DNA from: Octopus sinensis
Lineage: Eukaryota
Reading direction: 5' to 3'
Assembly: GCF_006345805.1 (NCBI RefSeq)
Contig: NC_043005.1
Location: forward strand, 55,428,001-55,492,000
DNA: 64,000 nt
In this document: positions 3,368 to 49,847 of the stretch, piece after piece
Numbering within the stretch: position 1 is the stretch's first letter
How the letters are laid out: the number at the start of each line of letters is the position of its first letter
Made by a program: the position numbers and the translations under genes
The notes under the pieces: model-generated
Database searches by the model: none
The model's input: only the letters and a program-made list of their open reading frames with translations
What the model was told of the DNA's origin: nothing

Positions 3368-3915
3368 ACAATAATACCTTACTTTACAAGGACCTACTTT
3401 ACAAGACCCTGGGTTTACAAGTATTATTTTTCAGCTCACTTTTGTATGGTGAGCTGAAATTTTTCAAGCACAAATTTTGAATGAAGTGCAAAAGTTTCTA
3501 CTACCATAACAAATGCTTCTACATGTTACCAAGAAATTTATAGAGAGCAAAAAAAGCTTCTTCTAAGCAAACAACTCAAGACTTGTTTTTTTAAAACGAA
3601 ATCTACAAGTCTGTCTACGAGTGCTTGTGAATCGGCGATTGCGTCTACAAGTGATAGTGTTATAATAATAATATTCTTTATTGTAAGTGATCTTGACATT
3701 CTTTTTATTTTATATAAACTATTCTTTACATTCTACTGTTGTTTTATTGCCATTTATCTGTAAGTATTATAGATTTTATGAGTAAAATATTTTTCTGGGA
3801 ACGAATTATGATTTTTAACATTGCTAATATAGGAAATTATTGCTCTGCTTTACAAGTTTTGCTTTACAGACAGTCTTTGGGAACAAATTAACTCGTACAT
3901 TGAGACATTACTGCA
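3367..3915. mobile_element. Degenerate Tigger/pogo-like non-autonomous DNA transposon (MITE)
   Basis: Imperfect ~24-bp TIRs tacaataataccttactttacaag / ctcgtacattgagacattactgca with mostly transition mismatches, and repeated ctttacaag sub-terminal motifs. Confidence 0.5.
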
Positions 3916-3967
3916 TTTGTATGCATGTATGTATGTATGTATGTATGTATGTATGTATGTATGTATG

Positions 3968-3998
<31 letters not shown>

Positions 3999-4805
3999 TG
4001 ACTGTGATTGTGTGATGTTTATGACATTTATAATAATATTACAATGAGAACTAGAAATGAAATGAAAAGCAGGAGCTTGAAGCAGCCATTTTTGCATGTG
4101 TTGTTCACAAAGATTTTTAAATGAAAGAACATAAAGATAAGCATCTTCTTCAAACTTTCTTTTCATATTCCAAAAAATACTCAGACAGTGGATATCAAAA
4201 AAAAAAAAAAAAAAAAAAATAGGTTCATTTTACCAGCTGATGGTCAGAAATGAGCAACTCTGAGTACTGCAAATCAGAGCCTTTCAGTTATAAAGTATTA
4301 AGGAATACTCTACATTTGTATTGAATCCCGTAATGTATCACTTCTGGTGAATCAACATATAGATGTGTGTGTGTGTGTGTGAAGAAATAGGTGGAAAACT
4401 AGTGATGTTGATTATGATTTTCAACAATACATTTGGGTCTCCCATGTAAACAAAACAAACGAAACTCTATATGAAGAATGTCATATCTCTATCAATCTGA
4501 AACAGAGATTTGTAAAGATATGAACAACAGCAACAACAACAACTACTACTACTTCTACCACTATTACAAAAATGAAGACAACAACAACAACGATGTAAGA
4601 ATAAAATACAAACAATTGATGTTATGTTCATGCCATATAAATATCGATATTTCAATAAAATTTTTTTGTTTCAAATTTATTTTGACTTGCGTTTTTTTTC
4701 TATTCAAACTAGTTGAAATAACAACTATTTATCAACTGTGTGTACCATGTGACATGAAGGAGAATGAGTACACAACATTATGATATAACTTTATGATAAG
4801 CCAGC

Positions 4806-5575
4806 TATTGGGTCAAGTCATAAATAATTTACGTTGTTTGGAAGTAAATTGTAACAATGCATTTCGAACTTCAGATGTTTAAAATTGAAATGGAAACTAC
4901 TGTTTTTAAAAAAAGCCTCATCTGTCATTCATATTAAACAGTGAAAGCGTGCACGTCATAGTTTAATATTAAAGTACATATTCGTCATGTGATGAGAGAG
5001 TTTAAGAATGGAAAAAATCACTACAGAAACAGCTAAAAAAAATATGCATGTTTATGGCCAAGGTGGCATTAATGATCAGCAAGTGCATAATTGGTTTTCA
5101 GAGTTTTGTTCCAGAGATTTGTCATTGAGAAATCAAACTCAGACCGGGATGCTTATCAGACTTTGATCAAGATGCTTTAAGAGAATTAGAGGATTTCAAT
5201 CCTCGTAAAAGTACTTGGGAATTAGCAATTGACCTCAACACACCCGATTTATCATCTACCACCATATGGAAAAGATAGGAAAAGTCATCAAGCTGGCTGC
5301 TTCAATTCCCCATACTGTTTGTGAGAAGAATAGGGAAGATCATATATCCATAATGACAAGTCTTCTTTCAAGACAGAGAAATTACCTGTTTCTCAATAAT
5401 ATCATTACTGGTAATGAAAAATTGGTCTTTTATGACAATATTTGCGACAGGAGGTAGTGGATTGACAAGACTAAATCTATCTCTAAAACTAACCTCAAAG
5501 GCTGAGCTCCATAAAAAGAAGATTATAAAAGGAAGAGCTCCATAAAGGAAGATTATAAAAAGAAGAGCTCCATGT
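4806..5575 (+). pseudogene. Mariner transposase relic
   Basis: ORF 5266..5457 reads ...IPHTVCEKN...FLNNIITGNEKLVFYDN, a degenerate WVPHEL and ITGDEKW.YDN. A TIR-like tattgggtcaagtcataaata lies at ~4806. Multiple stops and frameshifts. Confidence 0.85.
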
Positions 5576-5808
5576 TATGGCTTGTTTTGTGCCAAACCAA
5601 TCCACATGGTGCAAAATATATATGAACAAAAGACATTTAAGCATTTACACTTGAAATAAGATGTCACTACTTTTAATATCATCTACGGTAATTTTTTTAA
5701 GTGATGATATTAACAGTAGTACTATAGGACATCATATTTTGAGCATAAATGCTTGAATGTTGTTTAATTATATATATGTGTGTGTATATAAATACACACA
5801 CACACACA

Positions 5809-5880
<72 letters not shown>

Positions 5881-5889
5881 GATAGATAT

Positions 5890-5922
<33 letters not shown>

Positions 5923-6077
5923 GGCATGGCTTGGTGGTTGTGTAATTGAGAAATTCACTTTCAAACCACAAAGTTTTAAGTTCACTCCCACTGCTTGGCA
6001 CCTTGGGCACTTATCTTTTATTGTAGTTCCAAAGCCTTATAGGTAAATTTGGAAGATGGAAACTGAAAGGAGCCCGT
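5923..6077 (+). mobile_element. Degenerate 5' half of family-A SINE
   Basis: Similar to the 7137-7290 head (cccactgcttggcaccttgggc...atggaaactgaaag). Confidence 0.7.
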
Positions 6078-6142
6078 TATCATCATCATCATCATCGTTA
6101 TCATTGCCACCACCGCCACCACCATCATGGTCATCATTGTTG

Positions 6143-6188
<46 letters not shown>

Positions 6189-6944
6189 ATTAAAATCATC
6201 ATTTTAATGTCCATATTTCCATGCTCACATGGGTCAGAGAAGTCTTTATCGGAGTCTTCTCAACTGGATGCTCTTCCTGAGGCCAACCCTTGCCTGCTTC
6301 CACACAAGGCAATGATACTTCACCCTATTGAAAAAAAATGAACAACCCACGCTTGCTTACACACAGTTTATGAGTCTTTTATTGACGAACATTGCACAAC
6401 ATGTCAAAGCATGTCAAGGAGACCAGACATGCTTCCACAATAAACATGCTCATATATAATATGCATGTGTGTGTGTGTGTGAGTGTTTGTGAGTGTGCGT
6501 GTGTGTGTGTGAGTGTTTGTGAGTGTGCGTGTGTGTGTCTTTGTCTTGTCATCAAACGATATATTGACAATGAGTATCATGCTCGTGCAAGTAGCATTAT
6601 TCATTTCCAATTTTCCATGACAATAAAACATGTCCAGCCATGGCAAAAAAAATTGCTTTGCTTGGAAATAGATGAAGATCAACAATGAGAAGGAGATTGA
6701 GCTTCAAGAAACCTGCTTCATTGGATTCCACTTAAAAATGAGCAAACATGGAAAAGTGAACGTTAAAATGATGATGATGATGATGATATAAATTTATGTG
6801 GCTATGTCTAATTTATTTACCTTTCTCGCTTCATATATTTTATATAAATACGTGTGTGAGTGTGTGTATGTGTGTGTGTGTGTGTGCATGTGTGTGGGTG
6901 TATACATATACATTGATCTCTTGAGCACCACCAGCAAAAAATTT

Positions 6945-9531: not shown

Positions 9532-10129
9532 GGAATTTAGATGATTGAACAAATGAATGTTCATTGTTGTGACCAACAGAAAATATTTAACACAAAGACT
9601 TAAGAAAAAGAGAAATACAGTGGAGGTGTTCACAGTATGATTGTTTTTGATTTAAAGTTATATTCGCTAACAGCATAGACAATTATACTGGCCAATCTCT
9701 GTCATTAATTATTAATATTACTTACTGTTATAAATCAGACATGAATCAAAACTTCTTGAAATGAAAGTATATGTAGATAAGACTTCACAGATGGTCGTTG
9801 AACTTAAAACTTGTTGCTCAAATTAATTATTCATTGTTACAGTTCCAAACTTAGGAAACTTAACTGTTATTTTCTTTCAAACATTTTTTTATCATTTTTT
9901 AAAACTCATTACAAAATTTTAGTTATTTTGTTTCCATTATTTAAAAAAATTGTATATGTGTGTGCGTGCATGTGTATATGTGTGTGTGTGTTTGTGTACA
10001 TATATACATATATTCATGTATGTATGTATGTATGTATTCATGTATATTGCACTTGAGCAGTGTATACAATATGTTCATTCATACATATACTCACAGACAC
10101 ATATATATACACATATATATGTACATAAA

Positions 10130-10179
<50 letters not shown>

Positions 10180-10301
10180 ACTTTATATATATACACACAC
10201 ATATATATATATATATGAACATCATCATCAACATAATCATCATCATCACCATCATCATCATTTATATATATATATATGAAATATATACGTATATATATAG
10301 A

Positions 10302-10722
10302 TAGAAGTGGCTGTGTGGTAAGTAGCTTGCTTACCAACGACATGGTTCCGGGTTCAGTCCCACTGCATGGCACCTTGGGCAAGTGTCTTCTACTATAGCC
10401 TCAGGCCGACCAAAACCTTGTGAGTGGGTTTGGTAGATGGAAACTGAAAGAAGCCTGTCGTATATATATATATGCGTGTGTGTGTGTGTTTGTGTGTATG
10501 TTTGTGTGCATGTTTGTGTGTCTGTGTTTGTCCCCCCCAACATCGCTTGACAACCGATGCTAGTGTGTTTACATCCCTGTAACTTAGCGGTTCATCAAAA
10601 GAGACCGATAGAATAAGTACTAGGCTTAGAAAGAATAAGTCCTGGGGTCGATTTTCTCGACTAAAGACAGTGATCCAGCATGGCTGCAGTCAAATGACTG
10701 AAACAAGTAAAAGAGTAAAAGA
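10302..10722 (+). mobile_element. Full-length family-A SINE
   Basis: Head, central microsatellite, 3' half and (agtaaaag)n tail are all visible. Confidence 0.9.
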
Positions 10723-10835
10723 GTATATATACATAAACACACACACATATACACACATATATATACACATATATATATATAAATACATACGTTCATATAT
10801 ATATAAATACATACATTCATATATATATATATATA

Positions 10836-12737
10836 TAGTCAGTCCACCTGTGCATACCTTCCTTCTTGTGACACTTGTGAAGACCTGTTGAGACAAGTGA
10901 AAATCAAATCAAATCAAAAAATCAAAAAATCAAAACAAATCAAATAGATGAACATCAATGGAATTTGTATCTTTGTGGTACCAGTGCCGGTGGCACACAA
11001 GAAAACCATCCGAACGTGGCTGTAGCCAGTACCGCATCGACTGGCCTCCGTGCTGTGGGCACGTAACAAACACCATCCGATCGTGGCCGTTCGCCACCCT
11101 CATCTGGCACCTGTGTCGGTGGCACATAAAAACACCATCTGAATTCCCGGTAAGACGAGTCAGGCCATAACCCGTGGCCCCTACCAGGGATGTAGTCAGT
11201 CCACCTGTGCATACCTTCCTTCTTGTGACACTTGTGAAGACCTGTTGAGGCAAGTGAAAATCAAAACAAATCAAAATAGATGAACATCAATGGAATTTGT
11301 ATCTTTGTGGTACCAGTGCCGGTGGCACACAAGAAAACTATCCGAACGTGGCCGTAGCCAGTACCGCATCGACTGGCCTCCGTGCTGTGGGCACGTAACA
11401 AACACCATCCGATCGTGGCCGTTCGCCAGCCTCATCTGGCACCTGTGTCGGTGGCACATAAAAACACCATCCGAAGACCCGGCAAGAATAGTCAGGCCAT
11501 AACCCGTGGACCCTACCTGGGACGTGCATACCTTCCTTCTTGTGACACTTGTGAAGACCTGTTGAGGCAAGTGAAAATCAAATCAAAACAAATCAAAATA
11601 GATGAACATCAATGGAATTTGTATCTATGTGGTACCAGCCTCATCTGGCACCTGTGTCGGTGGCACATAAAAACACCATCCGAAGACCCGGCAAGACTAG
11701 TCAGGCTATAACCCGTGGTCCCTACATGGGACGTAGTCAGTCCACCTGTGCATACCTTCCTTCTTGTGACACTTGTGAAGACCTGTTGAGGCAAGTGAAA
11801 ATCAAAACAAATCAAAATAGATGAACATCAATGGAATTTGTATCTTTGTGGTACCAGTGCCGGTGGCACACAAGAAAACTATCCGAACGTGGCCGTAGCC
11901 AGTACCACATCGACTGGCCTCCGTGCTGTGGGCACGTAACAAACACCATCCGATCGTGGCCGTTCGCCAGCCTCATCTGGCACCTGTGTCGGTGGCACAT
12001 AAAAACACCATCCGAAGACCCGGCAAGAATAGTCAGGCCATAACCCGTGACCCCTACCTGGGACGTAGTCAGTCCACCTGTGCATACCTTCCTTCTTGTG
12101 ACACTTGTGAAGACCTGTTGAGGCAAGTGAAAATCAAAATCAAATCAAATCAAATCAAATCAAAACAAATCAAAATAGATGAACATCTTGTGAAGACCTG
12201 TTGAGGCAAGTGAAAATCAAAATCAAAATCAAATCAAATCAAATCAAAATAGATGAACATCAATGGAATTTGTATCTTTGTGGTACCAGTGCCGGTGGCA
12301 TACAAGAAAACCATCCGAACGTGGCCGTAGCCAGTACCGCATTGACTGGCCTTCATGCTGTGGGCACGTAACAGGCACCATCCGATCGTGGCCGTTCGCC
12401 AGCCTCATCTGGCACCTGTGTCGGTGGCACATAAAAACACCATCCGAGCGTGGCCGTCTGCCAGCCTCGTCTGGCACTGTCGGTGGCACATAAAAAAAAA
12501 AAACACCATCCGAGCGTGGCCGTTCGCCAGCCTCGTCTGGCATCTGTGTCGGTGGCACATAAAATCACCCACTACACTCTCGGAGTGGTTGGCGTTAGGA
12601 AGGGCATCCAGCTGTAGAAACCCTGCCAGATCTGACTGGCCTGGTGCAGCCTTCGGGCTCCTCAGACCCCAGTTGAACCGTCCAACCCATGCTAGCATGG
12701 AAAGCGGACGTTAAATGATGATGATGATGATGATGAT
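10836..12737 (+). mobile_element. Multimeric SINE-like array (family D): ~5 units of ~330-360 bp ending in one RTE-like 3' module and a (GAT)n tail
   Basis: Unit starts (tagtcagtccacctgtgc) at 10836, 11193, ~11524 (deleted), 11734 and 12066. The terminal module is ggaagggcatccagctgtagaaac...gcatggaaagcggacgttaaa(tga)n. Confidence 0.85.
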
Positions 12738-12854
12738 ATATATACCAGACTACCCGTAACCTGTTGGGTCACCAGGAAACTTCCCAGAAACGGAATTTTG
12801 TTTTGTGGGTATTTTCTTTTCCAGGTTATTTTGCATGCTTCCAACAAATGTGAC

Positions 12855-13390
12855 ATCAAAAGGTTACAGTTTCTTCCCTTTCAGGATGAAGTTAAATTCA
12901 GAACATTTTTCCATTATGCACTGTTTTGGGTATTTATACCCCCAAACCCCAAATATCTCAATAACTACTGCTCCAATTTATGCGAAACTTGTTTCATTCC
13001 ATTCATATTAACATTTCAGAGTAAAGTTAATTCATAGAATTTTCCCATTATGCTCCTGTTTGGGTGGGTAACATTGCAAGCAAGCAAGTAAGATTCAAAC
13101 TAACTTTTAATGTATTATATATATATATGTATAAAACATTAAAAGTGGGCTTGAATCTTCCTTGCTTACTTGCAATCTTACCCAGCTAAACTTGTGCATA
13201 ATGGGAAAATACTATGAAGTAAATGGCCCCTGAAATGTGAATGCGAACGGAATAAAACAAGTTTTGTGTAAATCAGACAACTGGTTATTGAGATATTAGG
13301 GGTTCGGGGGATTTAAATACTCAAAACAGTGCTTAAGGCCAATTCTCCAAACATAACTTCACCCTGATAGGGAAGAAACTCTTACCTTTC
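12855..13390. repeat. Diverged ~260-bp inverted repeat centred on (TA)n at ~13115-13132
   Basis: Matching segments include agtttcttccctttcagg / cctgatagggaagaaact, aatatctcaataac / gttattgagatatt and ttttcccattatgc / gcataatgggaaaa. Confidence 0.85.
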
Positions 13391-14288
13391 AATTAGACAC
13401 AGTGACTAGACAATGAAAAAATACGATTTGTTTTTTATAGTAAATGTTTCTATTTCTGTGTTTGTTATACACAATATTTTAATCATTTAGAAATATTTAT
13501 AAGAGAATGTGATTTCAAAAATGTAAGTTGTTTGTACAGTAAGTATTTATATTTTAGTTTTCTTTAAACAGACAATATTTTAATGTTTTTATTAAATTAT
13601 TTTCAAGTAAATATCATTTCAAAAATTTGTTTTAGTATTTTTAAAAAGACCCATTCATAAACTCAGCGTGAAATAATTTTTTCCCATAAATTTTTTCAAG
13701 TGCATTCAATATAACTCACCTCCAGTGACTCAGCTGCTATTTCTAACATGCCCTGTTACCATGTAATAGCTATTTGCGATAAAGGACCTAAAATACCTGT
13801 TACATGGTAGCAGGGTGTGCAAGAAATAGCAGGCAAATCTCTCCTTCGAAGTGCTCAAGAGATTACAACTTGGTCATCACACAGCACTTATAGATTACAT
13901 TTTTGTGGAGACAGGAACCTGCAAGAGGGCATGATTCAGATGTACAACATTTGCAAGTTTTTTCTATTTGTTCTCTGGTTGGGATTTACAATTAGTGATG
14001 TTGATGTTGGTTGGTTTGTTGTTAGTGGGAGAGAATCCATATTGGAATTTATATTAGTATTGGATTGGAAAGTTGTAATAGAATTAGTATTTGTTGTCGC
14101 ATAGGTAGGTTTGTGGTATGTTTTGAAAACTCCATCTATCTTATTTGAGATATCGTTTTCTTTTATGTAAGTTGGACAGTATATTCTTAATTTTCACACA
14201 TTTACATTTTTCTCTTTGATTAAATACATCTTTATGTGTAAATAGATGTACCTAGCTTGCTTGTTGTTGCTTTATTTATATGTGTGTG

Positions 14289-14340
<52 letters not shown>

Positions 14341-14427
14341 AAGAAAACAGAAAATGGAGATAACATTTATGAACAATAACTCATTTGCATCAGTTATTAT
14401 TTATTAATGATTTACAAAAAGACTGCA

Positions 14428-14549
14428 TCCCATCTAACAGCTGTTTCTGCTGCCAGTGTTCTTTGGAATTACCATTATGATGCTAAGAGAATATTTATCA
14501 TAGTTTGTAATAAAACCAATTTGAATCATGGGGCTTCATCAGAGTGGGA
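14428..14549 (-). ncRNA. Type-I hammerhead ribozyme motif
   Basis: Minus strand TCCCACT-CTGATGA-A-GCC..(~75 nt)..GGCAGCA-GAAA-CAGCTG-TT-AGATGGGA. The core is intact, stem III is palindromic and stem I has 7 bp with one bulge. Stem II closure is imperfect. Confidence 0.6.
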
Positions 14550-14879
14550 AAATAAATAAGAAAAAAGAGACAAGAAAAGGAGAAGGAAAAGTTGAATGTG
14601 GTGAGAGCCATGTCATGTTGCATGTAGAGCCATTGGACGATAAGTAAATGACCAAAATTCAAAATAAAAGGGGTATTTGATAGAATATTCTTATGCAAGG
14701 GGCATAAGTTATAAAAATCATAGCTATTTGTACAAACAAGATAAGTCAAAAGAGGAATAAAATTACAATAAAGTGTTAGTAGTAATAATTATATTTATAG
14801 TACTAAGTAATAGTATTTATAATAAATTGCTTATTTATTTGATATAATTTTTCACTTACTACTAGTAGGCATTTCAGTC

Positions 14880-14970
14880 AATCCACCTATTGTCCAAAGT
14901 AGGTAGACCATGGACCACTGCCAGATATAATTGGTCAGTTAGGATTTGGAAGCAAAAGACTGGCTATTAA
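14880..14970 (-). pseudogene. Possible Penelope-like RT fragment
   Basis: The minus frame reads LPNPN*PIISGSGPWSTYFGQ*VD, resembling the P.RPIISG.G motif of Penelope RTs if both stops are point mutations. It lies close to the hammerhead motif. Confidence 0.3.
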
Positions 14971-15047
14971 TAAACCATTATTCTATGGGGTAAATATACG
15001 AATGCTATATGTTATAAGGGGCACAGAGCCATTTAAGGTAATATAAA

Positions 15048-15151
15048 TATAAAAATATAAATAAAATAAAATAAGACTAATAAAATAAGAAGAAGAATTA
15101 GAATATTTAGAAAATTTATTAGACTTATTTTATTTTATTTATATTTTTATA
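15048..15151. repeat. AT-rich 37-bp inverted repeat
   Basis: tataaaaatataaataaaataaaataagactaataaa / tttattagacttattttattttatttatatttttata, with one mismatch. Confidence 0.8.
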
Positions 15152-15174
15152 TATGACATGGAGAACTGGAAGCC

Positions 15175-15602
15175 ATCAGAATATTAGAAAAGATTTACTT
15201 GTATTGTGATGATTCGCACTAACTATCAAAATGATTGCAGCTCTGAGCACACTGTAAAGGCAGTAAGACATGATATGGACATCATAAAAACCAAGTTCCT
15301 CCAAAGTGTGATGGTCTTTTGTTATTGTCTCCAGCAAGGGTAATACATCTTTGAATAGAGACCTAGGCTCAAATCAGACAGCTATGTGAAGCTACTGGAG
15401 ACTGTGGTCAATCTCTGGCTGGGCTGCTGCTGGAAGGCCATATATTTGGCAACAGGAATCAGATCCTTGCCATACCTTTGGAAAGAGTCAAAGGTAGTTG
15501 TCAGAGAATTTCTAAGTCTTTAACAGTCCTAATTCCTGGCTTCTTAATTTCCTTCAGTTGCAACCTTATGGATTACTATGTGTGGGGTGCAGTTGAGAAA
15601 GG
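15175..15602 (+). pseudogene. Tc1/mariner (maT/DD37D-like) transposase relic
   Basis: Broken frames give TKFLQSVMVF, YVKLLETVV, GRPYIWQQESDPCHT and CNLMDYYVWGAVEK, i.e. degenerate WQQDSAP.H and SPD.NP.DY motifs. Confidence 0.75.
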
Positions 15603-16139
15603 CATATTATGGTTATACCAACAAGCTGAATTGTTAGCAACTCGTTGACGCTACACCGAAGAAGCCAGGGAACAGAAGAAAGAAGACATGCACCCAACAC
15701 CAGAGCTGAAGACACCTCCGAAAGGAGGGGGCCCCGCCACGTCAAAACGGTAAAGGACTAGAGGCCGAAAACGGACATGTTTCTTCCTGATGATGTCTTG
15801 AGCTAACTGGATCCTATAAAGCAGCTGTTGTCATAGCAGACCACGAAACATGGTTGTAATTCCTCAGATACCTAAATGTTCCAGCGACTTAATGAGCAAG
15901 CTTACTTTATTTACATTAATTAACATTAATTTACATTAATATACACATGTATTGTATAATGCTGAACAGACTAATTAATGCAAATGTGAATGCATAATTT
16001 CTTCCATACTGAAATTTAAATTACATGAAGAAAGTTGTGAAACGGCCATGATCCTATGGTAGTCATAAATATAATTCACTGCTCATTCCTCCTGACTTTA
16101 TGTTTTTACATACACTTCATGAAATAATTTTAGTGCTCA

Positions 16140-19403: not shown

Positions 19404-20147
19404 AGGTGCAACCATACCGAATTGCGTCCCAATCTCCCATAGCAGTACAGTTTACAGTGGGTGGCCCTGCTGGATCTAGGATGATATGGCTGAGATGTAC
19501 GAAGAGCGTCGATCATCATTAATTGTGTCTGTTCATTGGTGGTGCTTTTTCTGCATTTGAGGCTGACTGGAGGTATATTATCATCTCTGGGTGACCCTGT
19601 TTGTGTTCTGGGTTATCCTGCTTGTGTGTTATGTATGAAACTGTGCTCCCTGTCTGTAGGATGCAGAGAGTGTCTACCTTCTTCACACACTCTCTTTCTT
19701 CCTTCTTCACACACTCTCTTTCTTCCTACCTGCTTTTCTCCAGCCTTCTCTACTCCACTCTGTTTGTCTCTCTTCTATCACTTATTGGTACCAAAAGACT
19801 ATCCAATTTTTATCACCCATCCTTTTTTTACTTGACCTAGGTAAAATATATTTTTTCATCTCCTGCCTAGTATTCACTTCAGACCCCCAGTTTGTCTTAT
19901 CTTTTTACTTTTCATTCTTTTCTTCCCTTCTATCTTCTCTTCAACAATCTCATCTTTCTATCCTTCTCCTGAACTCATCATACCTTTGGAATACAAGCAC
20001 CACTATTTTCTTTCTTTTTATGTTAGTTTTTGTCACACTGTGTCCCATATTTTGAAATACTTACAATTTGTATATTTATTGCTTATGATTGCTTCACTTG
20101 ACATGTTTCTGAAATTAAGCAATTTAATATACAAAATATATTTTACA

Positions 20148-22248
20148 GGCCATCATGCTGTGGGCACATAACAAACACCATCCGATCGTGGCCGTTCGCC
20201 AGCCTCATCTAGCACCTGTGTCGGTGGCACATAAAAACACCATCCGAAGACCCGGCAAGACTAGTCAGGCCATAACCCATGGCCCCTACCTGGGACGTAG
20301 TCAGTCCACCTGTGCATACCTTCCTCCTTGTGATACTTGTGAAGGCCTGTTGAGGCAAGTGAAAATCAAAATCAAAATCAAATCAAAACAAATCAAAATA
20401 GATGAACATCAATGGAATTGTATCTTTGTGGTACCAGTGCCGGTGGCACACAAGAGAAAACCATCTGAAAGTGGCCGTAGCCAGTACCGCATCGACTGGC
20501 CTCCGTGCTGTGGGCACATGACAAACACCATCCGATCGTGGCCGTTCGCCAGCCTCATCTAGCACCTGTGTCGGTGGCACATAAAAACACCATCCGAAGA
20601 CCCAGCAAGACTAGTCAGGTCATAACCCATGGCCCCTACCTGGGACGTAGTCAGTCCACCTGTGCATACCTTCCTTCTTGTGACACTTGTGAAGACCTGT
20701 TGAGGCAAGTGAAAATCAAAATCAAAATAGATGAACATCAATGGAATCTGTATCTTTGTGGTACCAGTGCCGGTGGCACACACTTTGTGGTACCAGTGCC
20801 GGTGGCACACAAGAGAAAACCATCCGAAAGTGGCCGTAGCCAGTTCCGCATCGACCGGCCTCCGTGCTGTGGGCACGTAACAAACACCATCTGATCATGG
20901 CCGTTCGCCAGCCTCATCTGGCACCTGTGTCGGTGGCACATAAAAACACCTTCCGAAGACCCGGCAAGACTAGTCAGTCCACCTGTGCATACCTTCCTTC
21001 TTGTGACACTTGTGAAGACCTGTTGAGGCAAGTGAAAATCAAATCAAATCAAAATAGATGAACATCAATGGAATTTGTATCTTTGTGGTACCAGTGCCTG
21101 TGGCACACAAGAAATCCATCCGAACGTGGCCGTAGTCAGTACCGCATCGACTGGCCATCGTGCTGTGGGCACATAACAAACACCATCCGATCGTGGCCGT
21201 TCGCCAGCCTCATCTAGCACCTGTGTCGGTGGCACATAAAAACACCATCCGAAGACCCGGCAAGACTAGTCAGGCCATATCCCATGGCCCCTACCTGGGA
21301 CGTAGTCAGTCCACCTGTGCATACCTTCCTCCTCGTGATACTTGTGAAGGCCTGTTGATGCGCAAGTGAAAATCAAAATGAAATCAAAACAAATCAAATC
21401 AAATCAAATCAAAACAAATCAAAATAGATGAACATTAATGGAATTGTATCTTTGTGGTACCAGTGCCGGTGGCACACAAGAAAACCATCCGAACGTGGCC
21501 GTAGCCAGTACCGCACCGACTGGCCTCCGTGCTGTGGGGCACGTAACAAACACCATCCGATCGTGGCCGTTCGCCAGCCTCATCTGGCACCTGGGTCGGT
21601 GGCACATAAAAACACCATCCGAAGACCCGGCAAGACTAGTCAGGCCATAACCTGTGGCCCCTACCTGGGACGTAGTCAGTCCACCTGTGCATACCTTCCT
21701 TCTTGTGACACTTGTGAAGACCTGTTGAGGCAAGTGAAAATCAAAACAAATCAAAATAGATGAACATCAATGGAATTTGTATCTTTGTGGTACCAGTGCC
21801 GGTGGCACGTGGCACACAAGAAAACCATCCGAACGTGGCCATAGCCAGTACCGCATCGACTGGCCTCCATGCTGTGGGCACGTAACGAACACCATCCGAT
21901 CGTGGCCGTTTGCCAGCCTCATCTGGCACCTGTGTCGGTGGCACATAAAAACACCATCCGAGTGTGGCCGTCTGCCAGCCTCGTCTGGCACCTGTGTCGG
22001 TGGCACATAAAAAACACCATCCGAGCGTGGCCGTTTGCCAGCCTCGTCTGGCACCTGTGTCGGTGGCACATAAAATCACCCACTACACTCTCGGAGTGGT
22101 TGGCATTAGGAAGGGCATCCAGTTGTAGAAACACTGCCAGATCTGACTGGACTGGTGCAGCTTTCGGGCTCCCCAGACCCCAGTTGAACCGTCCAACCCA
22201 TGCTAGCATGGAAAGCGGACGTTAAATGATGATGATGATGATGATGAT
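20148..22248 (+). mobile_element. Second multimeric family-D array with the same terminal module and (GAT)n tail
   Basis: Unit starts at 20298, 20648, 20971, 21303 and 21673 after a 5'-truncated first unit. The terminal module is nearly identical to 12560-12737. Confidence 0.85.
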
Positions 22249-23691: not shown

Positions 23692-25229
23692 TTTTTTTTT
23701 TCTTCTTTCAAATTTGCTTCCATTTCTTGCCGAGTGTCTTCCCGACTCCTAGGGCAAAGAAACTCATAGCATACATTGGTAGGCCATTAAACCAAACTCA
23801 GTAGTTCGTTCATTTTTTTTTTTTTTTAAATTAAATTAAAAAAAAGTTAAATTAAAATACATGAGCAGCAACAGTTCTCACATCGACAATGCTCTTCTCA
23901 ATACGTGTGATGTACCAGTTAAGACAATCTTTTGCACTTCTTGCAGGGATGGTAAGCCAGGGATCATTCTCATATAATTTTCGGTTCCCTTCTTGATCAT
24001 TCCTAGTGCTCCTACGATCACTGGTAGTGTAACCGCCTTGAGATGCCACATTTTCTCAATTTCAATGAGTAGGTCTTTATATTTTCTGAGCTTGTCAAAC
24101 TCTTTCGCTGAGATATTATGATCACAGGGGATGCTCATGTCGATCAATAAGCAAACTTTATTGTTTTGGTCTTTCACAACAATATCTGGTTTATTGGCCT
24201 TGATGGTTCGGTCTGTATGTACTGGAAAGTCCCACAGAATGGTTACATTTTCTCCTTCAGTTACAGCCTCAGGGTGGTGATTATACCACTTGTCGGCAGT
24301 TTTGATATTGTAATGCCGACTTATTAGCCAGTGGAGATATTGGCCAACTCTGTCATGTCTTAATTTATACTCCACTGGTGCTAAGACTTTACATCCAGAG
24401 ATTAGGTGGTCCACTGTTTCAATCATGTCGTTGCAGAATCGGCATTTTGGGTCTGCTCCATTTTTCATCACATTGGCCTGGTAGTTCCGGGTTAATAGGC
24501 TTTGATCTTGAGCAGCCAGGATGAAACCTTCGCTCTCTGCTTTTAGCCTGAGCTCCGTAGCCACTGATGGGTTTGCTTCTGGTCAACATCAGCTTGTTTG
24601 CTGCGGGTCACATATTTGCCGTGCAGAGGTTTCTCCTCCCACCTATCAGCCAATTACTTGTGCGCTTTCTTCATTGCCATCATTTTCACCTTCTTTGCAA
24701 CAATAGTTGCCGTACTTCCCTCGGGTTGTTCAGTTTGGGTATCCTGCACGAGATCAATAGCAAATTTTTTGCTTTCCTTTATGATAGAATGAAGCTTCTT
24801 TCGTCTCTCGTGATTTTCCACGAGCTTTAGCATCCAGTCATTCGATATTTCGAGATATTTGGCCAGTCCAATTGTGGTTGTTTTGTAAGCTAGTTCAAAT
24901 TGGATCAGGCCTCGACCTCCTTGGGCTCTGGGAAGGTAAAGGCGATCTACGTCTGCCTTTGGGTGGTGCATCCTATTACAACTCAGCAGCTTGCGTATTT
25001 TTCTATCTATATTCTTTACTTCACTCATAATCCAGTTCAACACATTGTAGCTATAAGTAACAACTGGAACTGCTAAGGAATTTATAGCTAACACCTTGTT
25101 ACGTGCATTTAGTTCAGATTTCAGGACTGCACGAACTCTCCTATAACATTCCTTCCTGATTTTCTCTTTCATGCTTGCATGCTGAATACCAGAGCCTTCA
25201 TTTATCCCTAAATATTTGTATGTTTGTTC

Positions 25230-25232
<3 letters not shown>
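23692..25232 (-). mobile_element. 5'-truncated R4/Dong-clade non-LTR retrotransposon inserted in (TAA)n
   Basis: YKYLG RT end, CCHC finger CRFC...HLISGC, RHD, PD..D restriction-like endonuclease (KPDIVV...LLIDMS) and KLRKY. (ATT)n tracts flank both sides. Confidence 0.92.
23878..25215 (-). pseudogene. R4-clade ORF C-terminus (RT thumb, zinc finger, RLE endonuclease), disrupted around 24560-24660
   Basis: ORFs 24654..25172 and 23878..24564 in the provided track. Confidence 0.9.
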
Positions 25233-27089: not shown

Positions 27090-27352
27090 TGGCCGTTGCC
27101 AGCCCCGCCCCGACTGGCCCCCGATCGTGGCCGATCGTGGCCGTTTGCCAGCCTCGTCTGGCACCTGTGCAGGTGGCACATAAAAAGTACCCACTACACT
27201 CTCGGAGTGGTTGGCGTCAGGAAGGGCATCCAACTGTAGAAACACTGCCAGATCGGACTGGGCCTGGTGCAGCCTCCTGGCTTCTCAGACCCCAGTTGAA
27301 CCGTCCAACCCATGCTAGCATGGAAAACGGACGTTAAACGATGAGGATGATG
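27090..27352 (+). mobile_element. 5'-truncated family-D element (terminal module only)
   Basis: gtggcacataaaaagtacccactacactctcggagtggttggcgtcaggaagggcatcc...acgttaaacgatgaggatgatga. Confidence 0.9.
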
Positions 27353-27427
27353 ATATATATATGATATATATATATATATTATATATATATGTATGTATGT
27401 ATGTATGTATATATATATATATATGGA

Positions 27428-33939: not shown

Positions 33940-36900
33940 AACAACAACAACAACCACAGGAAAAACCACAAAAACCAGCATTATTGCCCACACCACAGTA
34001 TGGACGGCTAATAAAGAAGCTATATGCAGAAATGCATGAAAAGTAACAAAGAACGGACCAACCCAACCAAACAACACCACCACCTGCGCCAAGAACAGAA
34101 TCATCACCACCAACAACAACCAAACCAATTCCAACACCGAGAACAACAACGAAGAAGACAAGCACCAAGGATGTAGGAGAGACAATCACCACACCAAACC
34201 CCCCAGCATCACCCCCCCGCACACCACAACAATATCTACAACCGCACAAACAGACCCAGATGCTTTGCCCTTACCTCCTTCTGATTCGTCAGACTTTTCA
34301 TCTAACGATGAAAGTTCGACAGAATGGCAAATAGTCATCGGGGGTAAAAGAAAAAGATTAAAAAAAACAAACAAGAAAACGCAACCAAAGCAGGGAGATA
34401 CCTGAACCCTGAAAGCTCCATACACAACCAAACAAGCACGAACACCACAAAAATACACACAATGCTATCAGCGATAGACACCAAAGACTCCAAACTAATG
34501 GTGTACATCACAGCCCACACAAACATCTGTGAAGATGACTTCAAAACTAACAACCATCTACGCACTACACCACCCAAACACATCAAAATACTACACATCA
34601 CACAAACACAACACCACACACTCAAAGCCCTCTTTCCAAATGCGGTTGGGGGGTTTCAAAAATACCTTTCGAAAAAACTCTATAAAAACCTCCTCCAAGA
34701 CACATCAAAGGACGAGGAAGCCAAAACTTTCGACACAAGTAAGTAACTCTCTGTACCTTCCTTTTTGTGTTTTAAAGCACACACCCCAATAGAATCATGG
34801 TCAAGATTGGTTGTGTGAATGTGCATGGCTTGGGGTCTCCTTGGAAACAAGGATACCTCCTAAATGACATCAAGTCACACGATTTGGAGACCAGACTCCA
34901 CGAGCCACGGGCCCTAAAGTCCATGTTTGGCGGACAGTTTAACATTTATTTTGCTCCCTGTCTGCCGAGGATGGGCGGTAGTGGCACCGTGGTACTTTTT
35001 CAAAAGAGCCTGGATCTCGAAGTCAAGATGATATTCGAAGACCCGGAGGGTAGACTGGTTGTTCTGGATGTCGACGGCAGCAATGGGTGAGCTTTTCGAC
35101 TCGTATCAGTCTACGCACCGCCTTTAACAGGTCGGCCGGATCTCTTTCGACGTCTAGAATTATTCCTGGGAACGTCTCGTCCTTTACTTTTAGTGGGGGA
35201 TTGGAATGCTACCTTGGACACGCATCTAGACTATGTGGGGAGAGACAAAAACAGAAGGGGATGCAAATGCCTCAGAAACCTGCTCAGACGATTCCAACTG
35301 TCTGACAGGTACCGACTCGACCACCCAAATGCACCAACATGGACATGGAGCAACCGCAGTGGGTCGTCGAGATCGTATCTAGATAGGATACTGTGTAGGA
35401 CAGTAGACAGGGATAACTTAGGATGTCCACAATTCCACACAGTCAGCTACACGGATCACAAATTCGTGACGTGTACGCTAGACTTAAATAAGGCACATAG
35501 ACAGGGTCCTGGTTACTGGAAACTGAACCCATCTTTCCCGTTCAGACAGGTTTTCAGAGACAGAATCAACACATTAGTAAAAAGGGCTTTAACGGGAGCC
35601 ATTGTCAACAACAAATGGTGGTTCGCCCTCAAGAGAGCAGTAAAAGCGGAAGCAATTAGATATAGCAAGACACTAGCCGTAGATAGAAATAGAGTGGAGG
35701 GTGAGTTAGTTAAGAAGTTAGAAGAGGCAATAAGAAGCGGCATCACATCCGACGTTTTAGCGGCGAGGTTAGCCCTTGACCAACACTTCAACGCCAAACA
35801 CAAAGGGTGTGCTGTCAGGGCTAGGATGCGTGCTCTAAGGATGGAAGGTGTTGGAGCCGCGAGGGACGCCCGGGTGGCGGAGGCGCAGCAGGGCAACAAA
35901 GCCACCATTCGGTCTCTGGTAGATGAACAAGGGCGTGAATTGCTCGAGCCCAGCAAGATGTGCGAGACATTTCAGCGGCACTTTGCCCGGCTGTACGGGA
36001 CGAGTGGTGAGCGTGAACGCAGGGTGGACTTCAGTGCCAACCTGCACAGCCTACCACGACTCTCGGCAAGAGAGGCAGAGTGCTGTGAAGGTGCCATCAC
36101 GGCGGCGGATGTGCAGGACGCGATGGCAGAATGCTCGAGAAACAAATCGCCGGGTTTGGATGGTCTGCCCTACGAGTTTTACAATTGTATGCCAGACTTG
36201 TTTGGAGACGTCTTGGCAGCGGTATACTGCAACTGGCAGCAAAACGGGAGCATACTCGGTTTTGTGAGTCGAGGAGCCGTAACGCTGCTGAAGAAAAATC
36301 CAAACAAGGGGAACATTATAGATAACTTTAGACCAATCACTCTGCTCAATGCAGACCTGAAAATTTTGACCAAGGTGTTAGCCAAGAGGTTGGCGCTTGT
36401 CATCAAGAAACTGGTCGAAAACGCACAAACGTGCGCCGTGCCGGGCCGGAGCATCCATGACAACCTCCATCTGATGCGCTACATCATAGACAGAGTAGTT
36501 AAGGAACCTGGCATGGGTGGGGCCCTGATCAACTTGGATCAATCGAAAGCCTTCGATAGGGTAGACCATCGATACTTGGAGGCAGTCCTGAGAGCGGCTG
36601 GTTTCGGTCTTGTCTTCCGCGGCTGGATAGCTGCCTTGTACAGAGGCATCCGTTCGGTAATTCGCGTAAATGGACATCTATCGATACCTTTCGACATTGC
36701 ACGTTCGGCGAGACACTGAAAGACTACGAAGTGGTGACAGGAGCAAAAATCAACCGGGAAAAGTTAGTGGGCTTGCGGCTCGGCACCTGGAGAAGCAAGC
36801 CCATGCCGTCCACCAGTACCTCCGTCGTGGGACGCTGGACGGACGGCCCGGTTGAGTTGCTCGGGGTCTGGTTCGGTCCGGACCTCCAAATGGAGAAGAA

Positions 36901-38010
36901 CTGGAACGAGATAACGAGTAGGGTGGTCACTCTCGCCCGGCAATGGGCCAAAACAACTCTGCCGTCCCGGGTCGACCTTGAGTGACTTCAACACAATCAA
37001 AGCATTCTATAGGGGATTAGTGGAGGGGAGGGACGACGACGATCTTGGGGCAAACCTGGGCGTCGACGAGGAATACCTGACCCGCCTGTTTGAAACGACT
37101 TTCGGGTCGGGATCTATGGACAACTTCCAGAGATCCCTGGCCTGGCAGTGCTACCGAGAAGCGCTACCCGTTCGAGATAAGCTCTATAGGCATGGCTCGA
37201 GGAACACGGGGCCGACCTGCCCGAGATGCGGGCAGAGCGACGAAACCGTTCTGCACGCAATCGTGCCGTGTCCAACAATCTCCGACCTGTGTGCTTATAT
37301 CGAACAACTGCTGTCACGTGTGGGACATGTCGGTTTATCAGCCGAGTCTATCGTTAATATCGTCACGCCTCCTTCCTTCAAACGGGAAGGAAGAGCTATT
37401 TTTATCATACTTGTGGCTATGGCGAAAGAATGTATCTGGTGGACGTGCCTGAAAGGATTAGAGACAAACACTTTCCTCTCTGGTCAATCTCTCATCAACT
37501 TCTTCAAGTATCACTTGAAGAGGAAAGTGAGAGTAGAGAGGCAAGTGTTGCCTAGTGAATGTTTTAAAAAAAGATGGGTGAATGTAGCAAGGATGGCACA
37601 TATGAATGACGAAGCCACCTTGACTATGATCCTATGAACCGTAAAAATTAAGACAGAGAGCTGCTTATTTGTAAAAAGAAATATAACATGTGACTTCATT
37701 GACCGAGGTTACCGTGGTATTTTCCGTAGGCTTTTCTTTCCACGGGTAAACCTCACTTGTCCTCCCCTTTACTCTTTATATTGACATTTCTGTGATAACG
37801 ATCCCTATTGATCAATTTTTTTCCTTTCCTTTTCTTTTCCTTTCCCTTTTTTTTTAAACTTTATCCCCCCCCCTTTTTTTGTCCTCTTTCTTTCCTTTTA
37901 CGATCACTTTTGATCGAAAACCAACCCCCCTTTTTTTACCCCCAAAAGAAAAGCTCTACCTTGTGATTTGTCCTGTCTGTGTGCAGCCTTGTGTGGCTAA
38001 TAAAGAAACA
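33940..38010 (+). mobile_element. Tx1/L1-clade LINE, 5'-truncated and internally deleted, inserted in (TATC)n
   Basis: Thr/Pro-rich ORF1 remnant, ORF2 with APE-RT-zinc finger, pyrimidine-rich 3' UTR and AATAAA at 37999-38004. (CTAT)n lies on both flanks. Confidence 0.92.
34797..37637 (+). pseudogene. Tx1-like ORF2 (APE endonuclease, reverse transcriptase, C-terminal CCHC)
   Basis: NVHGL, YAP, GDWN, SYLDRIL and TDH (APE); KSPGLDGLPYEFY, FRPITLLNAD and LDQSKAFDRVDH (RT); CPRC...HAIVPC. There is an in-frame stop at 35088-35090, and the RT QG/YADD region is deleted at ~36710. Confidence 0.92.
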
Positions 38011-46528: not shown

Positions 46529-46564
46529 TGATAATAATAATAATAATGATAATAATAATAATAA

Positions 46565-47156
46565 TCATCATCATCATTTAGCGTCCGCTTTCCATGCTAG
46601 CATGGGTTGGACGGTTCAACTGGGGTCTGTGAAGCCAGAAGGCTGCATCAGGCCCAGTCTGATCTGGCAGTGTTTCTACAGCTGGATGCCCTTCCTAACG
46701 CCAACCACTCCGTGAGTGTAGCGGGTGCTTTTTACGTGCCACCCGCACAGGTGCCAGACGGAGCTGGCAAACGGCCATGGACGGATGGTGCTTTTTACGT
46801 GCCACCGGCACGGGGGCCAGGCGAAGCTGGCAACGGCTACGATCAGATGGTTCTTTTTATGTGCCACCGGCACGGGGGCCAGTCGAGGCTGGCAATGGCC
46901 ACGGATGGTGCTTTTTACGTGCCACCGGTTTGGAGGCCAGTCAGGGCGGGGCTGGCAACGGCCACGATCAGATGGTTCGCTTACTTGTCACCGGCACTGG
47001 TATCACAGCTGCAATTTCCATTGATGTTGATTGACTTCGATTTTGGTTCTGCTTTCTGATATCTGATTTGATTTGGTTTGATTTTGATTTTGATTTTTGA
47101 TTCTCACTTGCCTCAACGGGTCTTCACAAGTGGAGTTTTGTGTCCCAAGAAGGAAA

Positions 47157-47380: not shown

Positions 47381-47957
47381 TAATAATAATAATAAGGCGC
47401 AGGAGTGGCTGTGTGGTAAGTAGCTTCTTACCAGACAGACGTGCTGTTTTTTGCTCCGGCAAATGTCACGTGTTAACGTGAATTATTGAACATTTTACGG
47501 CAACAGGTAGGACATTTTGGACATTTTTGGAAGCATAGTGAGGTTTATTGCTAGCCGTTAATACTTTTTTGGCATTAATGTTAATTAGCGTTAACACTTT
47601 TCTGCGCGTAACAAGCTTCACTTTGCTTCGGATGTATTTGTTCTGCCTGTTGGCGTATTTATTGTCTCACCTTTTAGTGAGAATTGTGTATTTTGAAGAG
47701 GCATAGCCCCTCCTCAAAAATTAATTTGTTCGCTTGGATTTACCACGGAGAACCAATTGTGCTTGGATTTACCACGGAGAACCAAGTGTGCTGCAACTAG
47801 GAGTACCCTGTTTCGTGAGGATTACCAGTTGCAGAACTGTGTTGCCATTATTTGAACTGTCTTCCTTCGTCCTTTTCTTTGTTCTGTCTTTCTGTTCTGT
47901 CATTGTGTTTTTTTCTTATTGGACTTTGAACTTTTAGTTGAACTTTTTTTCAAAATC

Positions 47958-49168
47958 ATGGCAACAAAAGAAACCACTGCTTTGGAATGGGAGGTTGTCC
48001 CACCCAAGCAGTGGATTGAAAGTCTTGAGAAGAGGACGGTGGTCCTACGAACCTATTCTAGGTCACGTGGAGCTATCGCCCTCTTCGACAGGAGCACCAT
48101 AGAGAAAGAGTTGGGGGACCACCTACCAACGATAAAGTTTATTTCTCGGGGGAGTAAATTTGCAACGGTGTGGTTGCTGTTTGGTACCCCCGAGGAAGCT
48201 AGCAGATTTGCTAGCGAGCCACTGGAGGGAGAGGAAATTTTGTTCCTCCCCTCGTATTGTGACAGAAAAGTAAAAAGAGCCTGGGTTTGTGGGCTGCCCC
48301 CGGGCACGGAGGCGGAATGGATCGAGAAGACCATCCGGCGAGGCCTGGGGATAGCGGACCCAGGCTACTGAGTGTGAAAATGGCTCCCGCGGTCGCCTGG
48401 GAGGGGTCAAAGGCAACTTTGACCCTGTGGACACCGGTGGCCGTGGGAGAAATGAAATTCCCGGACTTCCTGAGAATGGCTGGGCACAGGTACCCGGTGA
48501 TACTCGAGGGACGCCCCCCCCCAAGTGTCACCTGTGCCTGAAGCCCGGACATATCAAGAGGAATTGTCCCGGGGGCCATGGTGGTGCCCCGGAGCATGAA
48601 GGGGAAAAGGCGCCCGCCGCCCCCTCATTTGAGGGGGAGACGGTGGAAGTCGTGGAGGAGGTTGCCTCCACGAAAAGAAAGAGACAGGCGAGCAACAATG
48701 GCTGCTCGCCAAAGAACGCTCAGGTGGCGGAGAGGGATAGCGATCCCCCGAGTCTGGTGACGGAGACCCTGGGTCAGCAGTCTCCCCCAAAAGAAGGAGG
48801 AGAAAAAGAAAGAAAGGTCGGGCAGCTGATATCCATGAGCCGCAGACGTTGGCAGGAACTGTGCCGCCAACGAAAGAACTGAACGTATTGGTCCTCTTCT
48901 ATAGAGGAGGAGAAATTGAAAAAAAAATGATGGAAGAGTACCACAAGGAGCTCCTTTAGCCTTCACACAGGACCCCGAATGGCCTCCGCAGATAGCTGTG
49001 GAGGCCGTGGCGTTCGACGTGATGCTTGGGCTAAAGGAGCTCAATGAAGATTATAGCTTGGTCCCGGGCGACGCGAACTCGGAACTTGATTACGTTCTGA
49101 GGGAGGCATGTATGATGGTGGAGGGCGCAGGCACAAGCTATTTCGAGGACAATATATGTAATTATTGA
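47958..49168 (+). pseudogene. LINE ORF1-like protein with CX2CX4HX4C zinc knuckle, frameshifted in this assembly
   Basis: MATKETTALEW...VCGLPPG (frame of 47919..48371), ...RYPVILEGRPP (48287..48541), KCHLCLKPGHIKRNCP (48427..48882), and a further open frame ending ...EDNICNY* at ~49168. Confidence 0.75.
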
Positions 49169-49175
49169 ACTGTTA

Positions 49176-49312
49176 GTATTAATAATGGACTGCTAAGTCC
49201 AAAAATTGGAAAATTGAAAGAGGTTTAATACATCGTTTTGCATTTTTATTAATAATGGACTGCTAAGTCCAAAAATTGGAAAAATTGTAAGAGGTTTAAT
49301 ACCTCGTTTTGT
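49176..49312. repeat. ~70-bp tandem duplication in the element's 3' UTR
   Basis: tattaataatggactgctaagtccaaaaattggaaaa...agaggtttaatac.tcgttttg occurs twice. Confidence 0.9.
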
Positions 49313-49847
49313 GTTTATCTTTAAAAAGAACAATGTTTTAGAGAAGCGAAAGTCGGCGGGCGCTTTTTGTCTTCTCCCATCCTTATCATCTGTCTTTCAT
49401 TATCATTCACTTCATTAATGTCCTCGTCCAGCCCGCAAAGCTAACTTAATCTGTGTACTGCCTTTATGGCAAATGTTTTGAAATAAAGTAGCTTGCTAAC
49501 CAACCACACGGTTGCGGGTTCAGTCCCACTGCGTGGTATCTTGGGCAAGTGTCTTCTGCTATAGCCCCGGGCCGACCAATGCCTTGTGAGTGGATTTGGT
49601 AGACGGAAACTGAAAGAAGCCTGTCGTATATATGTATATATATGTATATGTGTGTGTGTTTGTGTGTCTGTGTTTGTCCCCCTAGCATTGCTTGACAACC
49701 GATGCTGGTGTGTTTACGTCCCCGTCACTTAGCGGTTCAGCAAAAAGAGACCGATAGAATAAGTACTAAAAGGCGGTGCTCCAGCATGGCCGCAGTCAAA
49801 TGACTGAAACAAGTAAAAGAGTAAAAGAGTAAAAGAGTAAAAAAAGA

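Follow-up and report, generated by a model that had tools for sequence, protein, structure and literature searches.

A SINE in the 64,000-nucleotide window of Octopus sinensis DNA analysed here is interrupted by a retroelement that encodes a single protein. This is very probably a non-autonomous element with a predicted RNA-binding ORF1, which inserts at one base of one SINE and is likely copied in trans by a 5.4-kb LINE of L1/Tx1 type found at that same base. The data support a complete, multicopy, SINE-site-specific ORF1-only family, whose ORF1 carries the substitution pattern of purifying selection between subfamilies. A LINE at the same site shares its 3′ end and is found with ORF1-only elements in mixed tandem arrays. 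The family is young and lies inside an old radiation of ORF1-only elements.

The insert and its host SINE

All features of the locus are on the forward strand. As the first-pass annotation had proposed from the letters, a SINE is split by an insert of about 2.05 kb: BLAST places the SINE head at 47396–47417, with the same flank in 30/30 copies, the insert (an ORF1-only non-autonomous non-LTR retroelement of subfamily A) at 47434–49485 and the rest of the SINE at 49486–49830. The head terminates in GGCTGTGTGGT at 47417 and contains TGGCTGTGTGG (47406–47416), which is A-box-like; the B-box-like GGTTCAGTCCC lies in the SINE remainder (49517–49527). These motifs, read by eye, are the sole basis for a putative tRNA origin of the SINE, the head of which gave no tRNA match with ARAGORN or Rfam.

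The insert opens with GACAGACGTG and closes with GAAATA. Its 5′ UTR (47434–47957), which differs in sequence between subfamilies and is likely to serve as an internal promoter, contains the 29-bp tandem repeat that had been noticed earlier (47732–47792 by TRF; 1–5 units across 30 copies). No ribozyme was matched in Rfam at the 5′ end of the element. ORF1 (47958–49161) encodes 400 amino acids in unbroken copies, arranged as RRM-RRM-CCHC with a low-confidence basic tail, and the zinc knuckle that had been recognised by inspection is present at 48523–48570, with a Pfam zf-CCHC E-value of 0.003 that is under the cut-off. Pfam returned no endonuclease or reverse transcriptase in the insert, as had been stated. 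The 3′ UTR holds a 70-bp duplication (49177–49240 and 49247–49311), present in 1, 2 or 5 units across 30 copies, which was absent from the earlier description. At 49459–49471 there is a 4-bp stem-loop, TGCC-tttat-GGCA, common to the autonomous same-site LINE. The end of the insert had been read as AATAAA; the letters are there, but the final AA doubles as the opening AA of the target repeat. Poly(A) is absent.

Target site and target duplication

The insert was searched against the 2.7-Gb genome, with the best 40 of 3,118 candidates scored and 30 loci returned. All 30 share their 5′ and 3′ ends, which makes this a multicopy family, and in all 30 the same SINE stands on both sides, interrupted at the same base, GGT^AAGTAGC. 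Family A is young, with a pairwise divergence of 2.0%. A 26-nt pattern from the 3′ end, taken without flank and common to subfamilies A and B, has 152 genome matches, 143 of which run directly into AAGNNGCT; two of the other nine were inspected and proved to be SINE variants. Insertion sites are thus not random, in keeping with the SINE targeting that had been suggested. The genome contains 59,901 uninterrupted exact SINE heads and 572 exact junctions of AATA with the SINE, which puts occupancy at roughly 1% of such sites.

The true target might be a tRNA gene, or some other small RNA gene, that shares the D-loop-like sequence and for which the SINE would merely offer about 60,000 look-alike sites. 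Such a target would fit an insertion point directly after an A-box-like motif and the nine of 152 ends off the strict pattern, with two of the nine inspected, and the available text of PMC4494074 describes Tx1 families that target small RNA genes such as U2. We consider it very improbable, however, as the bounded full-length family copies examined lie within the SINE or belong to an array at its insertion point, and the SINE head itself has no tRNA match.

Two repeats flank the insert, at 47418–47433 and 49486–49502, where an imperfect target site duplication of about 16–17 bp had been called. The right repeat is the host SINE's own target sequence and differs from copy to copy. The left one lacks one base relative to the usual SINE and recurs unchanged in 27 of 32 family copies whatever stands on the right side; together with the element start it has 59 exact matches in the genome (exact 5′ junctions). 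It is likely to be carried on the 5′ end of the element, so the call of a duplication holds in part: the duplication is partly element-borne, and its imperfection reflects a left copy fixed in the family, not decay.

The 135 SINE bases after the insert were compared with the insert itself over 30 copies. The SINE is about four times more divergent (0.085 versus 0.020, or 0.082 versus 0.019 with CpG excluded). Seven 5′-truncated inserts of 51–722 bp leave the SINE head intact and are flanked by duplications of 7–17 nt. The divergence of the SINE and the truncated copies together argue for target-primed reverse transcription into existing SINEs rather than for composite mobility. Were SINE and insert a single composite moving as a unit, the common site going back to one old insertion copied often, a left repeat identical in 27/32 copies and flanks that are always the same SINE would be expected. 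This seems to us extremely unlikely: besides the fourfold excess of divergence in the host SINE and the truncated inserts with intact heads, which contradict it, the host SINE exists in several variants that are also found uninterrupted, and very different ORF1-only lineages as well as a full LINE occupy the same base, including in mixed arrays. Two further comparisons were made. A Mantel test of insert against downstream-SINE distances gave r = 0.007, in a setting where two of three positive controls also failed, and linkage between variants of the head and the downstream SINE was not significant, with 11 intact SINEs available.

Other residents of the site differ in how the left repeat arises. 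In subfamily C the left repeat equals the right in 11 of 14 copies (4.5 expected, p=0.0004); C thus makes a true duplication, the left side matching the right locus by locus. In subfamily B the left repeat is fixed in 24/30 copies and left–right matches show no excess (14 versus 12.9 expected), and in the same-site LINE it is fixed in 17/18, including six of the seven with a differing target. Since the left repeats are fixed in A, B and the LINE, it would seem likely that a target-like RNA leader overwrites part of the duplication. This family-fixed 5′ leader bears on how the 5′ ends of LINEs are joined to their target.

ORF1 and the ORF1-only subfamilies

The reading frame had been put at roughly 400 residues after repair of about four frameshifts, and this agrees with what intact copies contain. 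Measured against L016, an unbroken natural copy, the window ORF1 has four frame-shifting indels, at about 48346, 48513, 48765 and 48946, two of which fall within homopolymers of 5 and 7 bases, and a fifth indel near 49150, three codons before the end. An unbroken frame of 400–401 residues is found in 4 of 30 copies and a broken one in the other 26. Across these copies 42 of 80 small ORF1 indels sit in homopolymer runs, which cover 13% of the ORF, and some of the breaks may therefore be assembly errors. Short-read contigs, which pool all copies, differ from the window in the number of letters at four break sites.

A model of the protein, built with AlphaFold2 on a 19-row ORF1 alignment, is confident at about residues 10–200 and not past 207. 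The top Foldseek matches are tandem-RRM proteins (hnRNP A1, E 1.5e-4). VIA-align superposes residues 14–103 on the La RRM (Z 9.6, rmsd 2.8, 82 aligned) and residues 100–186 on further RRM-like domains (Z up to 7.7); a single CCHC knuckle, below the Pfam cut-off, follows the RRMs. No L1 ORF1 Pfam family was found in ORF1, the fold being RRM-RRM-CCHC, and the protein is predicted to bind RNA. One close database relative exists, named as an Octopus sinensis protein. Profile matches bear the names of O. vulgaris, O. bimaculoides and Argonauta hians (7 named of 10 looked up). One frame of the clade's ORF1 (L110:6632-7474, minus strand) matches the public protein P0001 residue for residue, and P0001 carries the annotation of an uncharacterized host gene. 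Host gene sets are likely to contain ORF1s of this clade.

In the ORF1 protein search the best 150 of 12,204 candidates were scored (150 of 10,000–16,000 in each of the protein searches). Relatives at 61–70% identity are ORF1-only elements of about 2–2.3 kb at the same SINE site. Among 132 elements with both boundaries, 110 (1,496–2,556 bp) carry an ORF1 of this clade and no ORF2; the remainder are one with a nested unrelated LINE, three with a distant ORF1 and no ORF2, seven with ORF1 and ORF2, two ORF2 pieces and nine with no core ORF match. An ORF2 belonging to the element thus follows this clade's ORF1 in 0 of 111 bounded elements. With the ends shared by 30/30 copies and ORF2 absent from 110 of the 111, the exception being nested, the proposal of a complete non-autonomous family stands.

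The sole reverse transcriptase-bearing element of the 111, L148, was considered as an ORF2-bearing parent and rejected; it is an unrelated 3.2-kb LINE nested inside an ORF1-only copy (oriented 3446–6622, G000:C1:171.61 Mb) and ends in (GAT)n. Reverse-strand reverse transcriptase frames at 23878–25232 of the window may resemble this nested LINE in kind.

Substitution ratios in the ORF1 core point to purifying selection between subfamilies (dN 0.22–0.33, dN/dS 0.09–0.26), at pS of 0.61–0.77, where synonymous sites are near saturation. Within family A the whole-ORF dN/dS is about 1, as expected of copies once inserted. In a quick maximum-likelihood tree with a midpoint root, the eight sampled ORF1-only rows group together as a single clade (SH-aLRT 100, stem 1.47), and a second, shorter ORF1-only lineage is placed apart from it. 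At the 20 best loci of this shorter lineage, ORF2 follows the ORF1 core within 1.5 kb in none and the junction-motif end is present in 14. The subfamilies are mosaics: families A and B are 98% identical over the last 640 bp and 70% over the ORF1 core, and A and another family 94% over the first 1,470 bp and 78% at the 3′ end.

These results bear on whether the ORF1-only elements could instead be recent deletion or early-termination products of an unsampled autonomous LINE with a close ORF1, the ORF1 being a passenger. Scoring covered just the best 150 of the 12,204 ORF1 candidates, which leaves room for such a LINE, and the text of PMC3414825 available to us reports that non-LTR elements yield internal deletions. 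Against this stand the 0/111 elements with their own ORF2, the eight rows forming one clade on a long branch, the dN/dS of 0.09–0.26 between subfamilies, and the observation that at none of 40 loci chosen by their endonuclease does the element have its own ORF1 more than 34% identical to that of the window family. We therefore judge a passenger ORF1 to be very unlikely, to about the same degree as a small RNA gene target.

The same-site LINE and comparison with known systems

Of the first 72 exact junctions listed, 12 were at ORF1-only loci already in the set and 60 others were examined: 31 end an ORF1 without ORF2, six belong to full 5.4-kb LINEs, nine are ends of ORF2 sequence and 14 have no core match near the end, several of these being short truncated copies. 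The full LINE has a CCHC ORF1, 27–34% identical to that of the window family, and an ORF2 in which Pfam recognises an APE endonuclease (Exo_endo_phos), a reverse transcriptase (RVT_1) and a C-terminal zf-RVT. The closest solved structure to this ORF2 is L1 ORF2p (E 3e-65, versus 6e-20 for R2); the homologue search gave no Tx1-named match, and the assignment stays L1/Tx1-type.

To avoid selecting on the junction, 20 copies of the LINE were chosen by endonuclease sequence alone. One lacks a 3′ end and the other 19 all stop at the SINE site (19/19), where PMC4494074 speaks of target specificity from more than 20% of flanks of one type. The LINE is as young as family A (p 0.013 versus 0.020), and one copy, L181, has unbroken frames of 467 and 1,130 residues, the latter being ORF2. 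The youth of the LINE, its unbroken copies and its one-base target make the endonuclease a candidate for a new site-specific APE. Older relatives with 79–90% endonuclease identity end at the SINE site at 4/7 loci, and families at 59–66% identity do so at 0 of the 8 loci with a visible 3′ end, five more being without one. In one non-targeting LINE group, ORF1 relatives of 62–80% identity are followed by ORF2 in 20/20 sampled; as scoring covered the best 150 of 16,161 candidates, ORF1-only offshoots at a greater distance would have escaped it. The same clan contains another very young LINE family (L201–L204), which does not use the SINE; its members have identical endonuclease scores and frames of up to 1,134 residues.

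Helper and dependants have only the last ~40 nt of DNA in common, comprising the 4-bp stem and GAAATA. Given the low ORF1 identity and the lack of DNA similarity outside these ~40 nt, the same-site LINE is not their immediate parent. In 19 diverse ends picked by hand, the 3′ stem is paired in 96% of cells, with compensatory changes in two of four pairs (0/500 shuffles); the stem was itself defined on the window sequence and has four pairs only. Different ORF1-only subfamilies stand head to tail in single SINEs at eight loci (L032, L035, L041, L049, L053, L058, L069 and L070), and ORF1-only elements are mixed with the same-site LINE in single SINEs at L181–L183. L070 (G000:C7:10455000-10464999) holds at least five ORF1-only elements, of both lineages, at one SINE site, in an array that extends beyond the stretch examined. 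Mobilisation in trans by the autonomous LINE is likely on the evidence of the common site, 3′ end, age and mixed arrays.

The window itself also contains a LINE, at 35091–38004, which had been compared with the insert for its stem. It is a broken L1/Tx1-type LINE (APE, reverse transcriptase, zf-RVT) related to the SINE-targeting LINE, with an ORF2 about 50–60% identical to it over the main matches. The resemblance of its AGCC-ttgtgt-GGCT (37985–37998) to the stem of the insert is there, but this LINE is not the helper, because it ends in GAAAC(TATC)n and not in the SINE. It is possibly a microsatellite-targeting sister family.

Taken together with the domain predictions, these features suggest how the element might move. 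Transcription by Pol II would begin in its own 5′ UTR, at a start inside the target-like leader. ORF1p would coat its own RNA, so that the element borrows only ORF2p, which the 3′ stem-loop and GAAATA end would recruit from the helper. The helper endonuclease would nick the SINE opposite GGT^AAG and prime reverse transcription there, with a second cut about 7–17 nt downstream. The target-like leader of some families may, where a copy is full-length, overwrite part of the left duplication. As the AAGTAGCTT motif would survive insertion, arrays could accumulate and 5′ and 3′ modules be swapped.

ORF1-only LINEs and transposon-targeting Tx1 elements are each already known, separately. HAL1 elements have a poly(A) tail and an L1-type ORF1 and are not known to have a fixed target. 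They are non-autonomous, encode only ORF1p and arose more than once, as the consulted portion of PMC5753468 describes. The octopus family resembles them in being ORF1-only, in at least two lineages; it differs in that HAL1 derives from mammalian L1, whereas the octopus family is site-specific, has no poly(A), its GAAATA end lying directly against the target, and has an RRM-RRM-CCHC ORF1 without an L1 ORF1 Pfam family. A parallel to the fixed target comes from HeT-A and other telomeric Jockey elements, in which, in the available parts of PMC13534243, ORF2 was lost repeatedly and ORF1-only lineages beget new ones; in Drosophila such loss affects telomeric Jockey and apparently not non-telomeric Jockey. 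HeT-A is likewise ORF1-only, shares a fixed target with autonomous partners and forms head-to-tail arrays (PMC13534243, same parts). It is, however, a Jockey element at chromosome ends with a host function, while the octopus family belongs to an L1/Tx1-type clan in a dispersed SINE and has no known host role. The octopus family thus works like HeT-A or HAL1 and is neither.

Tx1 targets listed in the accessible text of PMC4494074 are DNA transposons, LTR elements, microsatellites and small RNA genes, among them Tx1D for Tx1L, Mariner-N4_AMi for Tx1-Mar with SINEU, and Harbinger for Tx1-9_AMi. There too an APE-type LINE targets a mobile element and non-autonomous dependants use the same target; unlike here, the targets in that text include no SINE head and the dependants are non-coding SINEs rather than ORF1-coding elements. 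The R2 and R2/R1 SIDEs, which are non-autonomous and site-specific, lie among R1 copies in tandem arrays, with a target duplication between (PMC3414825, in the portion available). They resemble the octopus elements in site specificity and in forming arrays, but are short, non-coding, ribozyme-led and in 28S rDNA, whereas the octopus element has no Rfam ribozyme match. Ag-Sponge is an ORF1-only LINE derivative of the CR1 clade, with no target specificity described in the available text (PMC5786205). ORF1-only LINEs are recorded there and in the available part of PMC5753468 from L1 (HAL1), Jockey (HeT-A) and CR1 (Ag-Sponge), and Tx1 is absent from that list. In the accessible text of two cephalopod repeat papers (PMC13282606, PMC8967140) L1-Tx1 is named only as a class, the Octopus vulgaris annotation in the first having 80 L1-Tx1 families and no target notes, and the available text of PMC8869645 and PMC4824008 contains nothing on a SINE-targeting ORF1-only system. 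In the openly searchable full-text literature we found no account of a LINE that targets a SINE and has ORF1-only members; the family may already have an entry in a repeat catalogue such as Repbase or Dfam.

We suggest, as a tentative reading that we hold with somewhat less than even confidence, that this is an undescribed octopus LINE clan for which one base of a SINE head is a safe landing site, and that, in a parallel to HeT-A, ORF2 was lost at least twice within the clan and not in its non-targeting sisters, leaving long-lived ORF1-only lineages that outnumber the helper. If so, a shared fixed target and tandem arrays would be what favours ORF1-only elements. The system joins ORF1-only LINEs with LINEs that target mobile elements, as parasites on three levels (the SINE, the SINE-targeting LINE and its ORF1-only dependants). 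It also offers a natural comparison for the persistence of ORF1-only elements, between the ORF2-less lineages of a site-specific clan and outside relatives, of which 20/20 sampled keep ORF2.

Other repeats were seen in the window. Two clusters, at 10942–12546 and 20047–22060, are made up of a repeat of about 300 bp in 10 copies. A 224-bp inverted pair (27131–27354 and 46561–46784) is 91% identical, and its copy at 46.6–47.1 kb contains an internally repeated unit that is present in L148 too.
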